A stretch of 64,000 bases of DNA from a virus: IMG/VR virus record IMGVR_UViG_3300024999_000083; one strand, written 5' to 3'. The notes beneath the pieces are model-generated. The model made no database searches, was not told the DNA's origin, and was given only the letters and a program-made list of their open reading frames with translations. The translations under genes were made by a program, and so were the position numbers. Each line of letters begins with the position of its first letter. Position 1 is the first letter of the stretch. Shown here piece by piece: positions 48,525-62,676 of the stretch.

Positions 48525-50123
48525 ATGATTTTTAAATTTGATAAAGTTGGAAATATGGAAAATATAGATGTGGAAGGAGATATACAGGATATGGCAAGGA
48601 AAGGTAAGGATAAGGATAGGTTTAATCAAATGGATATGAATGTGGTTAATCAGGTAAAGGAAGAGGTTTTAAATACTATGACAGAAACACAAAGTCAAGT
48701 AGCTGCAGGATTTGAAAGTCTAGATGAAATTATTGGTGATGAGGATATGGTTCAACAACATGAAACAGAATTAGTTAAAGAAATGGATGCGGAAGTAGAC
48801 GATGAAAAATTAAAGCAACAAATGAGGGAATTAAATATGAGGAATATGCCTAGCTTGAGTAATTTGAGTAGAATGAAAGATGAAGGGGAGGGGAAGGAAA
48901 GTAGTGGAGATGGAGTAGGAAGTGATAAAGAGCAAATTCCGAAGGATCATTTTAATGAAGAATACAGCGATGCTCAAAGGAAGAAAGATGAATTAGCGAA
49001 GAAAAGGGAAGCGAATAAATTAAAGAAACAGATGAAAGAAAGATTAGAGCAATTAAATAGTGCAGTAGATAAGTCATTTGAGTTTGATAACGTACTTGTT
49101 ACTATGCGTGATGGTGTGCCGAAAAAGTTTCATTTATCATTGTCAGTGACGCAATTGGCTGAATTATACCTATCAGGACGCATATTCTATAAAAGTTCAG
49201 AGCAAAGGGGAGAAAAACACACAAGTAAAGGTGATGTTCCACTAATTAATGTGAAGCATACAAAGGATATATTAAACGCTCTATTATCTTCTTCATCTGT
49301 CAGTGGGGGATGTATCTACCTTAATTATGCAAAAGAAAATGAAGATGACTTATTTTTTGACTCTCAGAACAATACTTTATCAGGAAATTCTCCACTTTCA
49401 GTCTTAGATGGAGCCCACAGATTGGAGGCTATGGTGCTCTGGTATAGGGCGTTCTCTAAATTAAAAGATATTTCTACAATGAAAAATCCAAATGACTTTT
49501 ATTTTCCCGTAACAATAGAGAACGCTACGCACGAGGAGTCTAAGAATATTTTCGTCGAACTGAATAGTTTTAGTCTTCCAATTAGCAAGACTCGCATTGC
49601 CTTCCATGACGTATATAGCTTAAGTAACGTGATTGCGCAGAAGGTAATGAATGAATCCTCTCTTCGTAGCAAAATAGAGGTAATTTCTAATTCACTTCGT
49701 AAATCCAGTTCTAATGTAATGACGTTTAGTAGTTTATCAAAAGGATGTTCTTTATTTTCTCCTGACACTAAGAATCAAGCAAATGAAATTGGTTCTTATC
49801 TCTGTGACTTCTGGGATACCATCATAGAACTTTTCCCTAAAATATATGGTAATGTTACTCCTGAAGTAAAACAAATAGAGAAACTTAATACCTATATCGG
49901 AGAAGTTATGTTTATCCATGCGCTGTTCGGCATTTCTGTAGAATTACAATTTGTTAGTGATTGGAAAGATAAACTTAAAAAATTGACACAACCAAGTAGT
50001 TTTTTGAGTCGAGATAATGACTTATGGATAAGAAATATTACTCGTAATGAAGGGAAATTAATCAATACTAGTAAAACTCAAGATTTTGTGAAGGATCAGT
50101 TATTGGCGAAGGTATTAGGTTAA
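48525..50123 (+). CDS. DGQHR/DndB-like (ParB/Srx-fold) protein with acidic N-terminal extension
   Basis: DGAHRLEA motif in the central domain; 150-aa acidic low-complexity N-terminus. Confidence 0.45.
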   Translation: MIFKFDKVGNMENIDVEGDIQDMARKGKDKDRFNQMDMNVVNQVKEEVLNTMTETQSQVAAGFESLDEIIGDEDMVQQHETELVKEMDAEVDDEKLKQQMRELNMRNMPSLSNLSRMKDEGEGKESSGDGVGSDKEQIPKDHFNEEYSDAQRKKDELAKKREANKLKKQMKERLEQLNSAVDKSFEFDNVLVTMRDGVPKKFHLSLSVTQLAELYLSGRIFYKSSEQRGEKHTSKGDVPLINVKHTKDILNALLSSSSVSGGCIYLNYAKENEDDLFFDSQNNTLSGNSPLSVLDGAHRLEAMVLWYRAFSKLKDISTMKNPNDFYFPVTIENATHEESKNIFVELNSFSLPISKTRIAFHDVYSLSNVIAQKVMNESSLRSKIEVISNSLRKSSSNVMTFSSLSKGCSLFSPDTKNQANEIGSYLCDFWDTIIELFPKIYGNVTPEVKQIEKLNTYIGEVMFIHALFGISVELQFVSDWKDKLKKLTQPSSFLSRDNDLWIRNITRNEGKLINTSKTQDFVKDQLLAKVLG

Positions 50124-56309: not shown

Positions 56310-56924
56310 CTATATTGCGGTTAGGAGTTGATTTGATTTTATGTAATCATCGTAGTACATCCATTTGAGAGGTTCGTTGGTAATTGGGTGTTTCCCTGCG
56401 TATTCACTAATTCCTCTACAACATGAACATATGCCACTGCTGCTAAATATACCATATTTCTTACGAGCATCTGTTTGTGACTTAAATATCTCCCCTGTAT
56501 TTAAGCATATTACTTTTTTACTACGTCTCTCACTAGTTAAAGCATATTGTTTTTCTAATTCTACTTTAGCATCATAATCGCACCATTTTAATTCGACTCC
56601 CTGTTTTAAATATTTTCTAACGGATGTTGTGCTAATTTTTAATTGTTCGGCTATTAATAGTGTGTTTTTTAAACCATTTTCCCATAAATCACAAACTGTT
56701 TTAACCAAACTACTACAAGCATATTTGTGGCATTTTAACCAATCTATATCTGATTCCTTAAAATTAAATAATTGTGGTAATTCTGAATTCATAATGCTAT
56801 TCTTTATGTACTTCCATTCAGATTTTAAACTATCAATTCTTATAATTTTTACATTATTTTCTCTACACAGTCTATCTTTTTCATCATCAATATATTTAAC
56901 ATTTTCTTTAGTTTTATCAAACAT
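56310..56924 (-). CDS. homing-endonuclease-like protein (HTH plus NUMOD-like DNA-binding motif)
   Basis: ISTTSVRKYLKQG (HTH) and KVICLNTGEIFKSQTDARKKYGI (NUMOD-like) motifs. Confidence 0.35.
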   Translation of the reverse strand: MFDKTKENVKYIDDEKDRLCRENNVKIIRIDSLKSEWKYIKNSIMNSELPQLFNFKESDIDWLKCHKYACSSLVKTVCDLWENGLKNTLLIAEQLKISTTSVRKYLKQGVELKWCDYDAKVELEKQYALTSERRSKKVICLNTGEIFKSQTDARKKYGIFSSSGICSCCRGISEYAGKHPITNEPLKWMYYDDYIKSNQLLTAI

Positions 56925-57877
56925 TTTAATATTCTTTGTATGAAATCCCCATCCATTTCAACTCCATATTGTTTTGTGTTTATTTTAAAATATAAGTCTA
57001 TCCTGCCTTTATGCAATTCTTCTTTATATTCATATTTCAACCAACTAAAAGATTTCTCCGTTTTGAAATCTTTGATTATTTTTAATTTTCTTATTTGTTC
57101 CATAAAATTAAATCCAAATTTATTAGGATAACTAATTCCGTCACTACATTTATTACAACCAAAACCATGCCTTACTAATGTGTCAAATGACAATTCTTTT
57201 TCGTACCCACATTCTGGACATTTCGTAGGTATATTAATTCCAGAACCTTTTGAATATTTCTTTGAGTCGTCTTTATTTATTAAGAATATATCTAAATATG
57301 GATTGGTTACTGATACTGAATTACATAATTTACACTCAAGACTCCTCCTGCTATGTGTAAAACAACTTATACTTTTCAATTCAGATTCATGTTCTGGGTG
57401 ATCAAGGCACTTAAACCAATAACCTTGTTTTTCATACCCACCAGAACTATAACTAACGTCTTTAGGACTTAACATATTGCCTTTTCTATCAACATTTAAT
57501 TCATAATCCCATCTGCTTAATATGTAGTCTGCCAATTCTTTAAGTAGATTTTCATAACACCAATCGTAAAAAGATAGACTATTTTTTAATCTTGATTTTC
57601 TATAGTTTTCAGATCCATATAAAACTATAGCACAGTTATTACAATAATATGTTCCGTCTTCTTTTACGCATTTTTTATAATCTTTCCATTTTACTTTCTT
57701 TAACTTACCACATTTGTTACATTCAACTTCAACTGATATATTAGATCCATTTTGCAAATCTTCGATTTTAACTTCAAATTCATCTTTAAACTTTGTAAAT
57801 GCGTGACCCTTTCCTTCATACCATTTTTTATTGTTTGAATGCCATTTAACGTAAAACTCTTTTGTCAATAATCCCAT
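56849..57877 (-). CDS. multi zinc-ribbon protein
   Basis: At least five CxxC pairs (CNKCGK, CNNCA, CKLCNS, CPECG, CNKCSDG). Confidence 0.45.
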   Translation of the reverse strand: MGLLTKEFYVKWHSNNKKWYEGKGHAFTKFKDEFEVKIEDLQNGSNISVEVECNKCGKLKKVKWKDYKKCVKEDGTYYCNNCAIVLYGSENYRKSRLKNSLSFYDWCYENLLKELADYILSRWDYELNVDRKGNMLSPKDVSYSSGGYEKQGYWFKCLDHPEHESELKSISCFTHSRRSLECKLCNSVSVTNPYLDIFLINKDDSKKYSKGSGINIPTKCPECGYEKELSFDTLVRHGFGCNKCSDGISYPNKFGFNFMEQIRKLKIIKDFKTEKSFSWLKYEYKEELHKGRIDLYFKINTKQYGVEMDGDFIQRILKCLIKLKKMLNILMMKKIDCVEKIM

Positions 57878-58684: not shown

Positions 58685-60013
58685 CTAACTAACCTTCTTA
58701 TCCTTAAACTTACTCATCATCTTCAGTTGCTCCACAATAATACTATCAATCATAGGAATGCTAATATTCTTGGCGGCATTTATATCTGCATTTTCTTCAT
58801 GTCCACATGTAACACACTTAAACTTTGCCTGATTACTCTTACAATCTCTATTAGCATCATCTATACATCCACAATGACTACATCGCTTGCTTGTGTACTT
58901 TGGGTCAATCAAAATAAATTTAATACCCTTTTCTTCACATTTATACTTAGTTTTATTTTGGAGATCAAAATATGACCAATTCTTTAAAAATTTCTCAGAT
59001 TGTTGTTCTGAAAATCCACTTAGATTTTCCATTTGAATAGTTCCACAATTGTATTTTAATGCAGTATCAACTATATTTTTGCTAACTTTATGATTATATG
59101 TATCTCTAAATTTTCCAACTTTGTCTCTCATTTTATCTACTGGTTTTAATCTAACTTTCCTACCATGTCCTATTCTTCCGTTGCCAACTATTTTACTAGC
59201 AATATACATTTGTTTATTTCTTGCTTCAATCTTTTGCCGATAATGTATTAATTCACTACCATTAATTTTGCATTCTTTCCATGATATTCTATCCCATTTT
59301 TCTGTAGAAATATCAAATACTTGCATTGTTGCAGTATTCACAATTCCTAAGTCAACTCCTAATACTTTATTCATATCCAATTGCCTTACGACTGGTTCAA
59401 AACTAAAACTAATTATAAGATACCATTTGCCTCTTTTATCTTCAATAATTTGTGCTGATCCTTGTTTATATATACCTAAGATTATCTTATTTAATATTGA
59501 TTTCCTACTATTGTCCAAACTATCAATAAGAAAACTTACTCGTTTTATATCATTTTCTTTTTGATATTTAAGATTAAATAAACTGCATTTTACTTCGAAC
59601 CCTTTATTTCCTTGAGTTATCGTATAATTCTTATTATGGACAATGAGTGGAATACTCTGTTTAAAATTTGATAATGATACCTGACCTTTAAATAGTCCTT
59701 TTTTAATATCGTCTTTAAATCTATTACTTACAAATTGTCTAGTTTGAGCTACATTGCCACTATTATGTATATTCATAACTTCATTCATTCTGTTCTCTAC
59801 CCAAGATCCATGACTCTTACCATATCTATCTTTTTCATTTATAGTAGTACCATTCATTTGTTTGTGTTCCATATTTTCTACAGCAAAAGTGTAACAATAT
59901 GTTATTGCTTTATTTGAAGCTAACCATGATTGATATCTCAAATCTTTCAGTGTTTGTTTATAATTGCTTATTTCATTACAATTTTTTATTGCGATTTTAA
60001 TACATTTATTCAT
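58685..60013 (-). CDS. cas12f: Cas12f-like (type V-F) miniature RNA-guided nuclease
   Basis: RuvC-I LGVDLGIVN; RuvC-II CGTIQMENLS; Zn finger CSHCG...CVTCG; RuvC-III ENADINAAKNIS; long collinear similarity to AsCas12f1 as I remember it (WYLNISYDFEP/WYLIISFSFEP; GTIQMEDL/GTIQMENL; IDPQYTSQRCSECG/IDPKYTSKRCSHCG); sits next to the CRISPR array. Confidence 0.9.
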   Translation of the reverse strand: MNKCIKIAIKNCNEISNYKQTLKDLRYQSWLASNKAITYCYTFAVENMEHKQMNGTTINEKDRYGKSHGSWVENRMNEVMNIHNSGNVAQTRQFVSNRFKDDIKKGLFKGQVSLSNFKQSIPLIVHNKNYTITQGNKGFEVKCSLFNLKYQKENDIKRVSFLIDSLDNSRKSILNKIILGIYKQGSAQIIEDKRGKWYLIISFSFEPVVRQLDMNKVLGVDLGIVNTATMQVFDISTEKWDRISWKECKINGSELIHYRQKIEARNKQMYIASKIVGNGRIGHGRKVRLKPVDKMRDKVGKFRDTYNHKVSKNIVDTALKYNCGTIQMENLSGFSEQQSEKFLKNWSYFDLQNKTKYKCEEKGIKFILIDPKYTSKRCSHCGCIDDANRDCKSNQAKFKCVTCGHEENADINAAKNISIPMIDSIIVEQLKMMSKFKDKKVS

Positions 60014-60080
60014 AATATCTCATCATCCTTTTATATGATTCGTTTTATATGAAAAATAATACTTCCACACCTAGTATAAG

Positions 60081-60622
60081 TCTCGTATCTTATTGTATAC
60101 ACAAGTTTTAACAATAAAGAATAATGCTTAAGTGTTTGCCGGACATCTTGCATCATATATGTATATACAAGTTGTAACGAGGAATTTGAATTATAACTGG
60201 CTCACGGTCTTTCTTACATTCTTATACATATATGCAAGTCGTAACAAACCATGGTCTTGCTGTTCAACTTCTTGATTCTTGCAAATTGTAACGATCACTC
60301 ACCAGTGATTCAAAATTATCCCCTAGTCTTACAACTTATATGTATATGCAAGTTGTAACTTGATATTTCACCTTTAAACGCTCCAATAAGTCTTACACAT
60401 TATACATATATACAAGTTGTAACTTGTTTAATAGAAGCAAAGTATAAATCCAAGCATCTTACATCTTATATACATATACAAGTTGTAACGTAATGGTAGA
60501 TTTTCAGCTTCTTTTATTCGATCTTCTTACATCTTATATACATATACAAGTTGTAACTCTCGGAGAATTCGGAACTGAAGAGATACAAATCTTACATCTT
60601 ATATACATATACAAGTTGTAAC
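60081..60622. CRISPR. CRISPR array of about 9 repeats, consensus CTTACATCTTATATACATATACAAGTTGTAAC (32 nt)
   Basis: Near-identical repeats at 60328, 60392, 60458, 60526 and 60591; degenerate copies at 60081, about 60145, 60213 and about 60261; unique 32-36 nt spacers (one 15 nt next to a degenerate repeat). Confidence 0.85.
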
Positions 60623-60639
60623 TGCACCCCTCTACAAAC

Positions 60640-60830
60640 CAATCACACCAACCATTACAACTCATAAAAATGCGAACATATTAAATTATTACAACTTGAA
60701 TATACATATAAGATGTGCTGACGGTATTTGTGCCAGCAGTTTCAATAGGTGCGAATGTACTAGTGTTCTTATGTATGCTTATCATTCGCATTATTCCCAT
60801 TACCTTATCGAGAGCAATTCAACCTTATAA
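60640..60830. ncRNA. tracrRNA-like element: anti-repeat plus three hairpins
   Basis: 60688-60717 ATTACAACTTGAATATACATATAAGATGTG approximates the reverse complement of the repeat; hairpins TGCTG..CAGCA, GCGAATG..CATTCGC and CCTTAT..ATAAGG follow. Confidence 0.5.
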
Positions 60831-61084
60831 ATAAGGATTTACAAACCCTTCTTCGATTCATAGGCCACTAAGTCTGCCTTTATTTGAATTGTGATTGTGA
60901 ACTTAATAATTTACTTATGTACAAACTAACTACATTCACTAATTTACAATTTTCATCTCACCACATCCTCTTGTTAAAATATTTATTTATTACTTCAACC
61001 TATAACCAGTTTACCATAAGTGGAAATGCTTGTCAAGTTTTAACTTTGTAAACTTTATTTATCAATTTAATTACCTCTAATCCT

Positions 61085-61875: not shown

Positions 61876-62133
61876 CTAATTTTTATGATCATAATTAATC
61901 ATTGGTGATTTTTCAATTACTTTAGTTATTTCGCCAACATTACCTTTACCATCATCTTCTATAATTACATATGAAATTTGAAATGTTGGGTCATTCTTTA
62001 AAAATTCGGTAGGATCATTTGTTATTAATTTGTTAAAATCCTCAATAATTTCAATAGTGTTTGAAGTTAAAGACTCTGGGATAATCATATCCATTGTTGA
62101 TGTTAGGGTATATCTTACTCTTTTCTGTTTCAT
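61876..62133 (-). CDS. hypothetical protein (short paralog of 62188-62676)
   Basis: RYTLTSTMDMIIPE...NTIEIIEDF...DGKGNVGEITK matches RYTLTATIDLVIPH...NVIEIVENF...DGKGNVSKMTK. Confidence 0.5.
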   Translation of the reverse strand: MKQKRVRYTLTSTMDMIIPESLTSNTIEIIEDFNKLITNDPTEFLKNDPTFQISYVIIEDDGKGNVGEITKVIEKSPMINYDHKN

Positions 62134-62187
62134 AATTAATTACCATCCAATCTGTTCTTTTATCATTAGAATATACTAAAAATATAA

Positions 62188-62676
62188 TCAATGTGTAATT
62201 TTACAGTCATTTTTCTCTGAATCCTTGGCAATCTTAGTCATTTTACTAACATTTCCCTTACCATCATTGTTCATTATCTCATATGTGATAGTAGGTTGCA
62301 CTTGTGATTGTTTACTAAGAAAAGATTCATTATCACTCTTTAAAAACTCCAGAAAGTTTTCAACAATTTCAATAACGTTAGGGGTAATCTCAGGATGAGG
62401 AATAACTAAATCTATTGTTGCTGTTAAGGTATATCTAGCGATTTTCTGTTTAAATCTATTATACCTTATTTCAATATCAAAATCTTTGCCATATTGTGGA
62501 ATCCACACATTTTCATAAACAAATAAACAAAATTTAGGAAATAAATCTTCATCTTGTTTTGTAGGAGGATTATTCGCACCTAAATTACAATTGTTTAAAT
62601 TATTAAATTGATCTAACAATTCTTGGTCAGTAATACATTCTCCACAGAAATCTTCAAAATTCATAATTGTATTCAC
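62188..62676 (-). CDS. hypothetical protein (paralog family)
   Basis: See the paralog 61876-62133. Confidence 0.5.
   Translation of the reverse strand: MNTIMNFEDFCGECITDQELLDQFNNLNNCNLGANNPPTKQDEDLFPKFCLFVYENVWIPQYGKDFDIEIRYNRFKQKIARYTLTATIDLVIPHPEITPNVIEIVENFLEFLKSDNESFLSKQSQVQPTITYEIMNNDGKGNVSKMTKIAKDSEKNDCKITH

Follow-up and report, generated by a model that had tools for sequence, protein, structure and literature searches.

In a stretch of 64,000 nucleotides from a virus (IMG/VR record IMGVR_UViG_3300024999_000083, hereafter the window), the region starting at position 58685 is best explained as a CRISPR-Cas12f system of type V-F1 (V-U3 branch) carried by a large low-G+C phage or phage-plasmid, a reading to which we give a probability of about 80%. 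The features that place it in V-F1 are a compact effector with RuvC and zinc-finger motifs, its similarity to the corresponding profiles, a repeat-spacer array, a predicted trans-activating CRISPR RNA (tracrRNA) with a 3' anti-repeat, and a locus devoid of cas1, cas2 and cas4. An earlier note on this DNA had set the end of the locus at 60830, but it extends to around 60879, or to around 61036 when a promoter-like site is included. The elements of the locus, at their positions in the window, are:

58685..60013, minus strand: cas12f, 442 amino acids, type V-F1/V-U3-like effector with RuvC residues D221-E329-D410 and zinc finger C378/C381/C400/C403
60020..60030, minus strand: candidate Shine-Dalgarno-like sequence AAGGATGATGA upstream of the ATG, as read from the sequence
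60081..60622, minus strand: CRISPR array of nine repeats, consensus GTTACAACTTGTATATGTATATAAGATGTAAGA
60622-60590, 60557-60525, 60489-60457, 60423-60391 and 60359-60327, minus strand: repeats 1-5
60293-60262 (truncated), 60245-60212, 60178-60146 and 60112-60081, minus strand: repeats 6-9
60360..60390, minus strand: spacer 4, CTTATTGGAGCGTTTAAAGGTGAAATATCAA, with a protospacer in another phage
60623..60688, minus strand: leader between the anti-repeat and the first repeat, with a TTCGCAYTTTT box conserved in related loci
60689..60716, minus strand: tracrRNA anti-repeat ACATCTTATATGTATATTCAAGTTGTAA
60717..60879, minus strand: predicted structured body of the tracrRNA, with stems 5' of the anti-repeat, from the alignment with the AsCas12f1 scaffold, a covariance model and covariation
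61008..61036, minus strand: promoter-like site TTGACA-17-TAAACT with extended TG, from a consensus scan, a weak candidate for the tracrRNA/array promoter

The minus-strand open reading frame (ORF) of 442 amino acids contains all the TnpB/Cas12 motifs that the earlier note had listed (GVDLGIVN, GTIQMENL, CSHCGC...CVTCG and ENADINAAKNI), and the comparison with Cas12f/TnpB profiles proposed in that note gave significant similarity. The best model of the defence library was Cas12u3 of PADLOC (E 1.2e-119, model positions 3-394 of 398), and the V-F Cas12f model of PADLOC also matched at full length (E 1.6e-118). Matches were further detected with Cas12f1-like_TNB of Pfam (E 3e-21), with guided_TnpB of NCBIfam (171.6 bits, cutoff 100) and, slightly below threshold, with OrfB_IS605 of Pfam. 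Among solved structures, the best matches were the AsCas12f1 entries 8j1j, 8j12, 8dzj and 7wju (E around 1e-88), followed by the metagenomic Cas12f 9nzq (E 7e-76). The identity to AsCas12f1 was around 41% over 397 aligned residues, and the alignment covers residues 20-431, in such a way that the homology previously noticed is real but not confined to the C-terminal half of the protein. All of D221, E329, D410 and the zinc finger's four cysteines were invariant when 20 homologues were aligned.

The passing score of guided_TnpB and the label 'transposase' given to homologues in the source databases would suit the TnpB of an IS200/IS605-type transposon, which would use a transposon-end guide RNA for homing and have the repeats beside it by accident. 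By contrast, Cas12u3 and Cas12f give the best matches over the full length, the gene is found in around 30 loci together with an array that bears spacers and with a homologue of the AsCas12f1 tracrRNA, and the protospacers described below share a 5' motif. Also, no Y1 (TnpA) transposase was found among the families listed for the ORFs of the window or in the flanking ORFs, although transposon ends were not specifically searched. On this evidence a transposon of that kind is most improbable.

The existence of a tracrRNA is supported by pairing, homology and covariation. The anti-repeat shows 89-93% complementarity to the repeats, and the predicted anti-repeat:repeat duplex has an energy of -31.1 kcal/mol, versus -9.5 +/- 2.7 kcal/mol for shuffled repeats. 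G+C-rich hairpins adjoin the anti-repeat at 60717-60792; both elements had been noticed before, but as an anti-repeat followed by hairpins, whereas in the sense of the minus-strand RNA the hairpins come first. The single-guide RNA (sgRNA) scaffold of AsCas12f1, for which the experimentally used sequence was taken from bioRxiv 10.1101/2022.10.20.513037, aligns with positions 60861-60689 of the window on the minus strand, with GAGAAGTG, CTCGnTAAGGTA and TGAAACTnCnnGCACAAAnACCG as conserved blocks and the anti-repeat directly after them, as in the As scaffold.

Related loci also show conservation of the non-coding region upstream of the array. Ten of them were used to build a covariance model, which produced 36 matches in 30 loci, every one on the gene-sense strand; its full-length matches lie directly 5' of the array wherever an array was detected, both when the array is upstream and when it is downstream of the gene. 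The score at window positions 60717-60879 was 192.9 bits. In the aligned matches, 94% of the cells pair and 17 of the 27 pairs show compensatory changes, in an alignment that was fitted to the covariance model and hence favours the structure; compensatory changes were already seen in a plain MAFFT alignment. When the partner was slid by 1-3 columns only 34-40% of the cells paired, and none of 500 shuffles reached the observed values. The anti-repeat varies with the repeat of its own locus, with TTACAAC in the window, TTGCAA in the related locus L008 and GTCGCA/TGCGAC in L010 (L numbers denote the retrieved loci and contigs). The structure is shown by comparative analysis only, as folding of the single sequence of this region was no better than that of shuffles. 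Rfam holds no family for the window tracrRNA, its sole match being a chance snoRNA (E 0.69). Promoter and terminator scans gave sites that were not enriched over shuffled sequence, and because of this the promoter-like site at 61008..61036 is considered weak.

The strand of the locus had to be worked out because the repeat is partly palindromic. The order on the minus strand is tracrRNA, leader, array and cas12f, and on this four lines of evidence agree. A model with plus-strand CRISPR RNA (crRNA), in which the repeat ends in ...GTAAC on the plus strand, was ruled out by the tracrRNA homology and by the strand of the 36 covariance matches (36/36), and it is also contradicted by the G-U pairs in the stems and by the side on which the conserved flank of the protospacers lies.

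The repeat unit measures 33 nucleotides (nt), instead of the 32 nt previously proposed, and has the form GTTACAAC...GTAAGA. The array described in the earlier note was thus found, with nine repeats and spacers of 31-35 nt that are all different, but not its composition of five essentially perfect and four degenerate repeats: three repeats are identical, three carry 4 substitutions, another two have degenerated further and a single repeat is truncated. The identical repeats lie towards the tracrRNA and the degenerate ones towards the gene, which is the arrangement expected for a leader on the tracrRNA side. A tandem duplication with non-unique spacers, which had been named as the finding that would speak against a CRISPR array, was not reported here by Tandem Repeats Finder, and no copies of the spacers were found elsewhere in the 64-kb window, where the best chance match was 12 nt long.

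Within the leader, the TTCGCAYTTTT box (window 60655-60668) lies around 20 nt 3' of the anti-repeat and is kept in all close relatives. It repeats the TTCGCA arm of a tracrRNA stem, and could act as a terminator, pair alternatively or belong to the array promoter.

With four of the nine repeats degenerate or truncated and seven of the eight spacers lacking a detectable target, the locus could be regarded as a decaying relic, in which the nuclease or the guide RNAs would be non-functional and the array would be drifting. Degenerate repeats at the distal end are usual for arrays that are active. The protein keeps all its catalytic and zinc-binding residues, which do not vary among homologues, the three repeats nearest the tracrRNA are identical, the tracrRNA has been kept with compensatory changes, and the first 29 nt of spacer 4 match without error a phage found in the same metagenome as the closest relatives, all of which makes decay quite unlikely.

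The search for targets supports the conflict between mobile elements that the earlier note had proposed. Spacer 4 matches two IMG/VR contigs (L155 and L156) at 29 of its 31 nt, the first 29 being exact; the two mismatches are at the end distal to the protospacer-adjacent motif (PAM), and the 5' flank of the protospacer is CTTCA. In L155, a siphovirus-like contig of 10 kb with a module of terminase, portal, minor head, scaffold, major head and major tail genes, the protospacer lies in the minor head protein gene (phrog_115, E 9e-59). This contig comes from JGI sample 3300025011, the same metagenome as L004 and L005, the closest relatives of the window locus. For the remaining spacers the comparison with phages, plasmids and the element itself was negative: none of spacers 1-8 matched curated phage and plasmid collections, spacers 1, 2, 3, 5, 7 and 8 had no match in IMG/VR, and spacers 1 and 2 had none in JGI metagenomes.

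A pool of 91 spacers from related arrays was also searched for targets. Spacer 1 of L012 matches the tape measure gene of phiSM101-like phage-plasmids of Clostridium perfringens (33/33 in pCPCPLi3-1_4 and 31/31 in phage phiSM101), spacer 4 of the same array matches the plasmid replication gene of another C. perfringens plasmid (34/34), and spacer 3 of L079 matches the C. botulinum plasmid p1 (32/34). Searches for cross-targeting among the related arrays and retrieved loci yielded shared arrays and no targets.

The trinucleotide TCA stands immediately 5' of the protospacer on the crRNA-identical strand in 4/4 independent cases (CTTCA, AATCA, AATCA and TTTCA), against a background frequency of around 2%, whereas the 3' flanks of the same four show no common motif. 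The shared TCA on the 5' side fits a 5' PAM and confirms the strand independently. On this basis 5'-TCA is predicted as the PAM of the window's clade, from four protospacers of three arrays whose effectors include proteins around 45-51% identical to the window Cas12f. We know of no characterised Cas12f with a 5'-TCA PAM. Within the window array the spacers are preceded by ...AAGA, and for this reason the array's own spacers would not be self-targets.

Most spacers have no assigned target and the spacer searches covered phage, plasmid, IMG/VR and metagenome collections rather than bacterial chromosomes, in such a way that the system might serve mainly the carrier's own biology, by regulating or cutting DNA of the host or of the element itself, with counter-defence, plasmid addiction or lysogeny control as possible ends; phage CRISPR systems directed against host defences are known (PMC11656645). 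However, the spacers that could be assigned, in the window and in its relatives, all match phage or phage-plasmid genes for head, tape measure or replication functions, and no spacer matches the 64-kb window itself, so we consider such a role unlikely.

Building on the family membership, the array, the homology and covariation of the tracrRNA, the strand, the protospacers and their common 5' flank, a mechanism can be proposed for the V-F1 system. Transcription of the minus strand would yield a tracrRNA of around 170-300 nt, whose 3' anti-repeat would pair over around 28 nt with the repeats of a pre-crRNA from the adjacent array, and RNA processing would leave the guide 3' of the repeat. By homology with AsCas12f1 and further V-U3 nucleases that have been characterised (PMC7229846), a Cas12f dimer would bind this dual RNA, the complex would recognise double-stranded DNA (dsDNA) with a 5' PAM, predicted to be 5'-TCA, and a single RuvC site would cut both DNA strands. 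The presence of 5'-TCA in 4/4 natural protospacers, on the side expected for Cas12, lends only indirect support to a guide-dependent and 5'-PAM-dependent dsDNA cleavage by a homodimer. The targets would be other mobile elements in the same host, and the biological role or fitness effect would be to keep out phages and phage-plasmids that compete with the carrier, with protection of the occupied host cell as a further effect. Because spacer 4 matches a siphovirus-like head-morphogenesis gene, the element appears to use the system against competitors. As the locus has no adaptation genes, new spacers would come from Cas1-Cas2 acting in trans or from recombination.

Several points weigh against this interpretation. 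The gene-proximal half of the array is degenerate, and a target was found for only one of the eight true spacers in the phage, plasmid, IMG/VR and metagenome searches. L155 is only 10 kb long, and instead of belonging to an unrelated phage it could represent the structural module of an element related to the carrier. The PAM may not be uniform across effectors that are around 45-51% identical to the window Cas12f. No virion genes were seen in the 64-kb window, and the carrier may be either a phage or a plasmid. Finally, a weak match to Cas1, Cas2 or Cas4 at a distance from the locus may have gone unnoticed, as the lists for the window ORFs comprise the first 25 families.

Regarding adaptation genes, the earlier claim that none is nearby holds: no Cas1, Cas2 or Cas4 family was detected in the ten ORFs flanking cas12f, none is among the 25 families listed for the 89 window ORFs after PADLOC and Pfam scans, and none was found within 10 kb of cas12f in three relatives. 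The window has a G+C content of 28.7%, and encodes:

DnaB-like helicase, primase, RecJ-like exonuclease, Pol III alpha-type polymerase and exonuclease V/RecD-like helicase
ribonucleotide reductase and dUTPase
several HNH homing endonucleases
an actin-like partition protein
a HerA/FtsK-type ATPase, a Replic_Relax protein and a DndB-like protein

The partition, replication and homing-endonuclease genes that the earlier note had reported around the locus are thus present, but its conjugation genes come down to a HerA/TraG-like P-loop ATPase, with a sub-threshold match to TraG, and the Replic_Relax protein. The replication module looks like that of large phages, as judged from these gene products. 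The best match of the DNA polymerase is that of Brevibacillus phage Sundance, with around 35% amino-acid identity, and no DNA match to GenBank phages or PLSDB plasmids was obtained when the locus was searched by megablast; at the sequence level the carrier is only distantly related to known phages. Close relatives of the Cas12f (67-94% identity) are on contigs of 47-138 kb classed as viral by IMG/VR and in Bacillota metagenome-assembled genomes, and distant ones (35-52% identity) on Clostridium plasmids with capsid and tail genes and in Alicyclobacillus phage MMB025 and Bacillus phage Mgbh1. Because the relatives sit on viral contigs, on capsid- and tail-bearing Clostridium plasmids and in cultured phages, we call the carrier a putative large low-G+C phage or phage-plasmid, in line with the mobile element proposed before.

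Some other features of the neighbourhood were recorded. A DndB-like gene at 48525-50123, within a few kb of cas12f, recurs at L006:5934-7454 and L150:5903-7213. At 56310-57877, on the minus strand, two overlapping ORFs of 342 and 204 amino acids match the N- and C-terminal parts of phrog_4538, which suggests a frameshifted or split gene; the ORF of 342 amino acids also matches a homing endonuclease family. At 61876-62676, also on the minus strand, two neighbouring small genes (85 and 162 amino acids) without family match are paralogues, forming DNA repeats that are 75-79% identical and 312-321 nt apart.

A small array adjoins the gene in almost all relatives, with variations. Modules of tracrRNA and array are found on both sides of cas12f in L071 (3449-3634 and 5383-5543) and L001 (4752-4914 and 6529-6628), and a single repeat is present in L006/L008 and in the C. 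perfringens plasmid L002. In L015, whose Cas12f is 76% identical, the anti-repeat is joined by a 10-nt loop to a partial repeat followed by a spacer (L015:3563-3640), forming a perfect 17-bp hairpin that amounts to tracrRNA and first crRNA fused naturally into a single-guide-like RNA. In the contig L152, a relative encodes Tad2-like (anti-Thoeris) and Mu Gam-like proteins a few kb from cas12f (L152:6068-6280), which from the gene content would be consistent with a phage that has both counter-defence and competition genes.

Differences between arrays were also found among relatives. Compared with L016 and L077 (5562-5600), L022 (5562-5660) has an extra perfect repeat and a unique 36-nt spacer at the tracrRNA-proximal end, with identical flanks, which from the aligned sequences looks as if a spacer had been acquired in a polarised manner, in a family of loci that lacks nearby cas1 and cas2. 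An extra leader-proximal unit in L005 with respect to L007 was not counted as acquisition, as it looks like a duplication of the leader end and repeat. We put forward, only tentatively, that large Clostridial phages and phage-plasmids, as a whole clade, use adaptation-less Cas12f loci to fight rival elements and that their arrays still gain spacers in a polarised way. If true, these elements would borrow the host Cas1-Cas2, or use another route, to update their arrays.

The V-U3 systems, now included in V-F1, are adaptation-less Cas12f1 loci of Clostridia and Bacilli with effectors of 422-497 amino acids and a tracrRNA region adjoining the array, for which dsDNA cleavage and plasmid interference have been demonstrated (PMC7229846). 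The lack of cas1, cas2 and cas4 separates them from Cas14-type loci. The closest characterised system is that of AsCas12f1 from Acidibacillus sulfuroxidans (7wju, 8j12). Both effectors are of similar size (422 amino acids in As and 442 in the window), with nearly full-length homology, and they share the RuvC triad and the zinc finger; homology extends to the core of the tracrRNA, whose 3' end is the anti-repeat in both, and neither locus has adaptation genes (PMC7229846). In contrast, at the place of a short GCCAAAAGGC stem in the As scaffold, the window tracrRNA has an additional long one, TGCGAAT...ATTCGCA; the repeat sequence differs, and the carrier of the window locus is a phage-like element. 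The V-U3 PAMs have been described as T- or C-rich (PMC7229846).

The second-best solved relative of the window Cas12f is Cas12f-MG119-28 (433 amino acids, metagenomic, 9nzq), considered here together with CnCas12f. It is a different ortholog, described as a V-F nuclease of compact size that uses a large guide derived from a tracrRNA and has a T-rich PAM, and its natural context and targets were not described (bioRxiv 10.1101/2025.08.14.670346). Cas12j (CasPhi) of huge phages has around 700-800 amino acids and no tracrRNA, unlike the window system with 442 amino acids and a tracrRNA, and the structure match to CasPhi-2 reached only E 0.2. The PAM of AsCas12f1 is T-rich, of the NTTR type, versus the 5'-TCA predicted for the window.

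Type V-F systems have been reported to be enriched on plasmids (Pinilla-Redondo 2021, PMC9071438), and phage-borne CRISPR systems and mini-arrays against rivals have been reviewed (PMC11656645). Like the window locus, these plasmid-borne V-F and phage-borne CRISPR or mini-array systems are mobile, lack adaptation genes and carry spacers against other mobile elements (PMC9071438; PMC11656645). Loci with homologues of 35-52% identity also exist in GenBank, in phages MMB025 and Mgbh1, in C. baratii pNPD11_1, in C. estertheticum pCF007-C and in 54-kb plasmids of C. perfringens, with an array of one to five repeats directly beside the gene and in gene sense, and with the gene annotated as 'transposase' or TnpB. 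In the two phages (L153 for Alicyclobacillus phage MMB025 and L154 for Bacillus phage Mgbh1), the homologue has 38% identity, is annotated as 'transposase' and has an array of 2-3 repeats directly upstream. Compared with the window, the arrays of these loci are shorter, and in some of them the array is downstream or on both sides of the gene.

The system itself is a further member of the published V-F1/V-U3 group and not a new kind, and the picture of the Cas12f mechanism is unchanged. In the literature that could be searched, no description was found of the Clostridial phage and phage-plasmid Cas12f clade, of its tracrRNA, of its natural protospacers or of its PAM. The novelty is modest and consists of this clade, the tracrRNA family with the extra stem, the natural protospacers and the predicted TCA PAM. 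Natural targets and PAMs of V-U3 Cas12f are poorly documented, as most work treats these proteins as editing tools. The four natural protospacers, one from the window and three from relatives, link the system with rivalry among phages and phage-plasmids in Clostridia, and from the analysis come a PAM that can be tested (5'-TCA) and a tracrRNA/crRNA design ready for use with the 442-amino-acid nuclease. The GenBank phage and plasmid loci now labelled 'transposase' or TnpB are likely the same kind of system.

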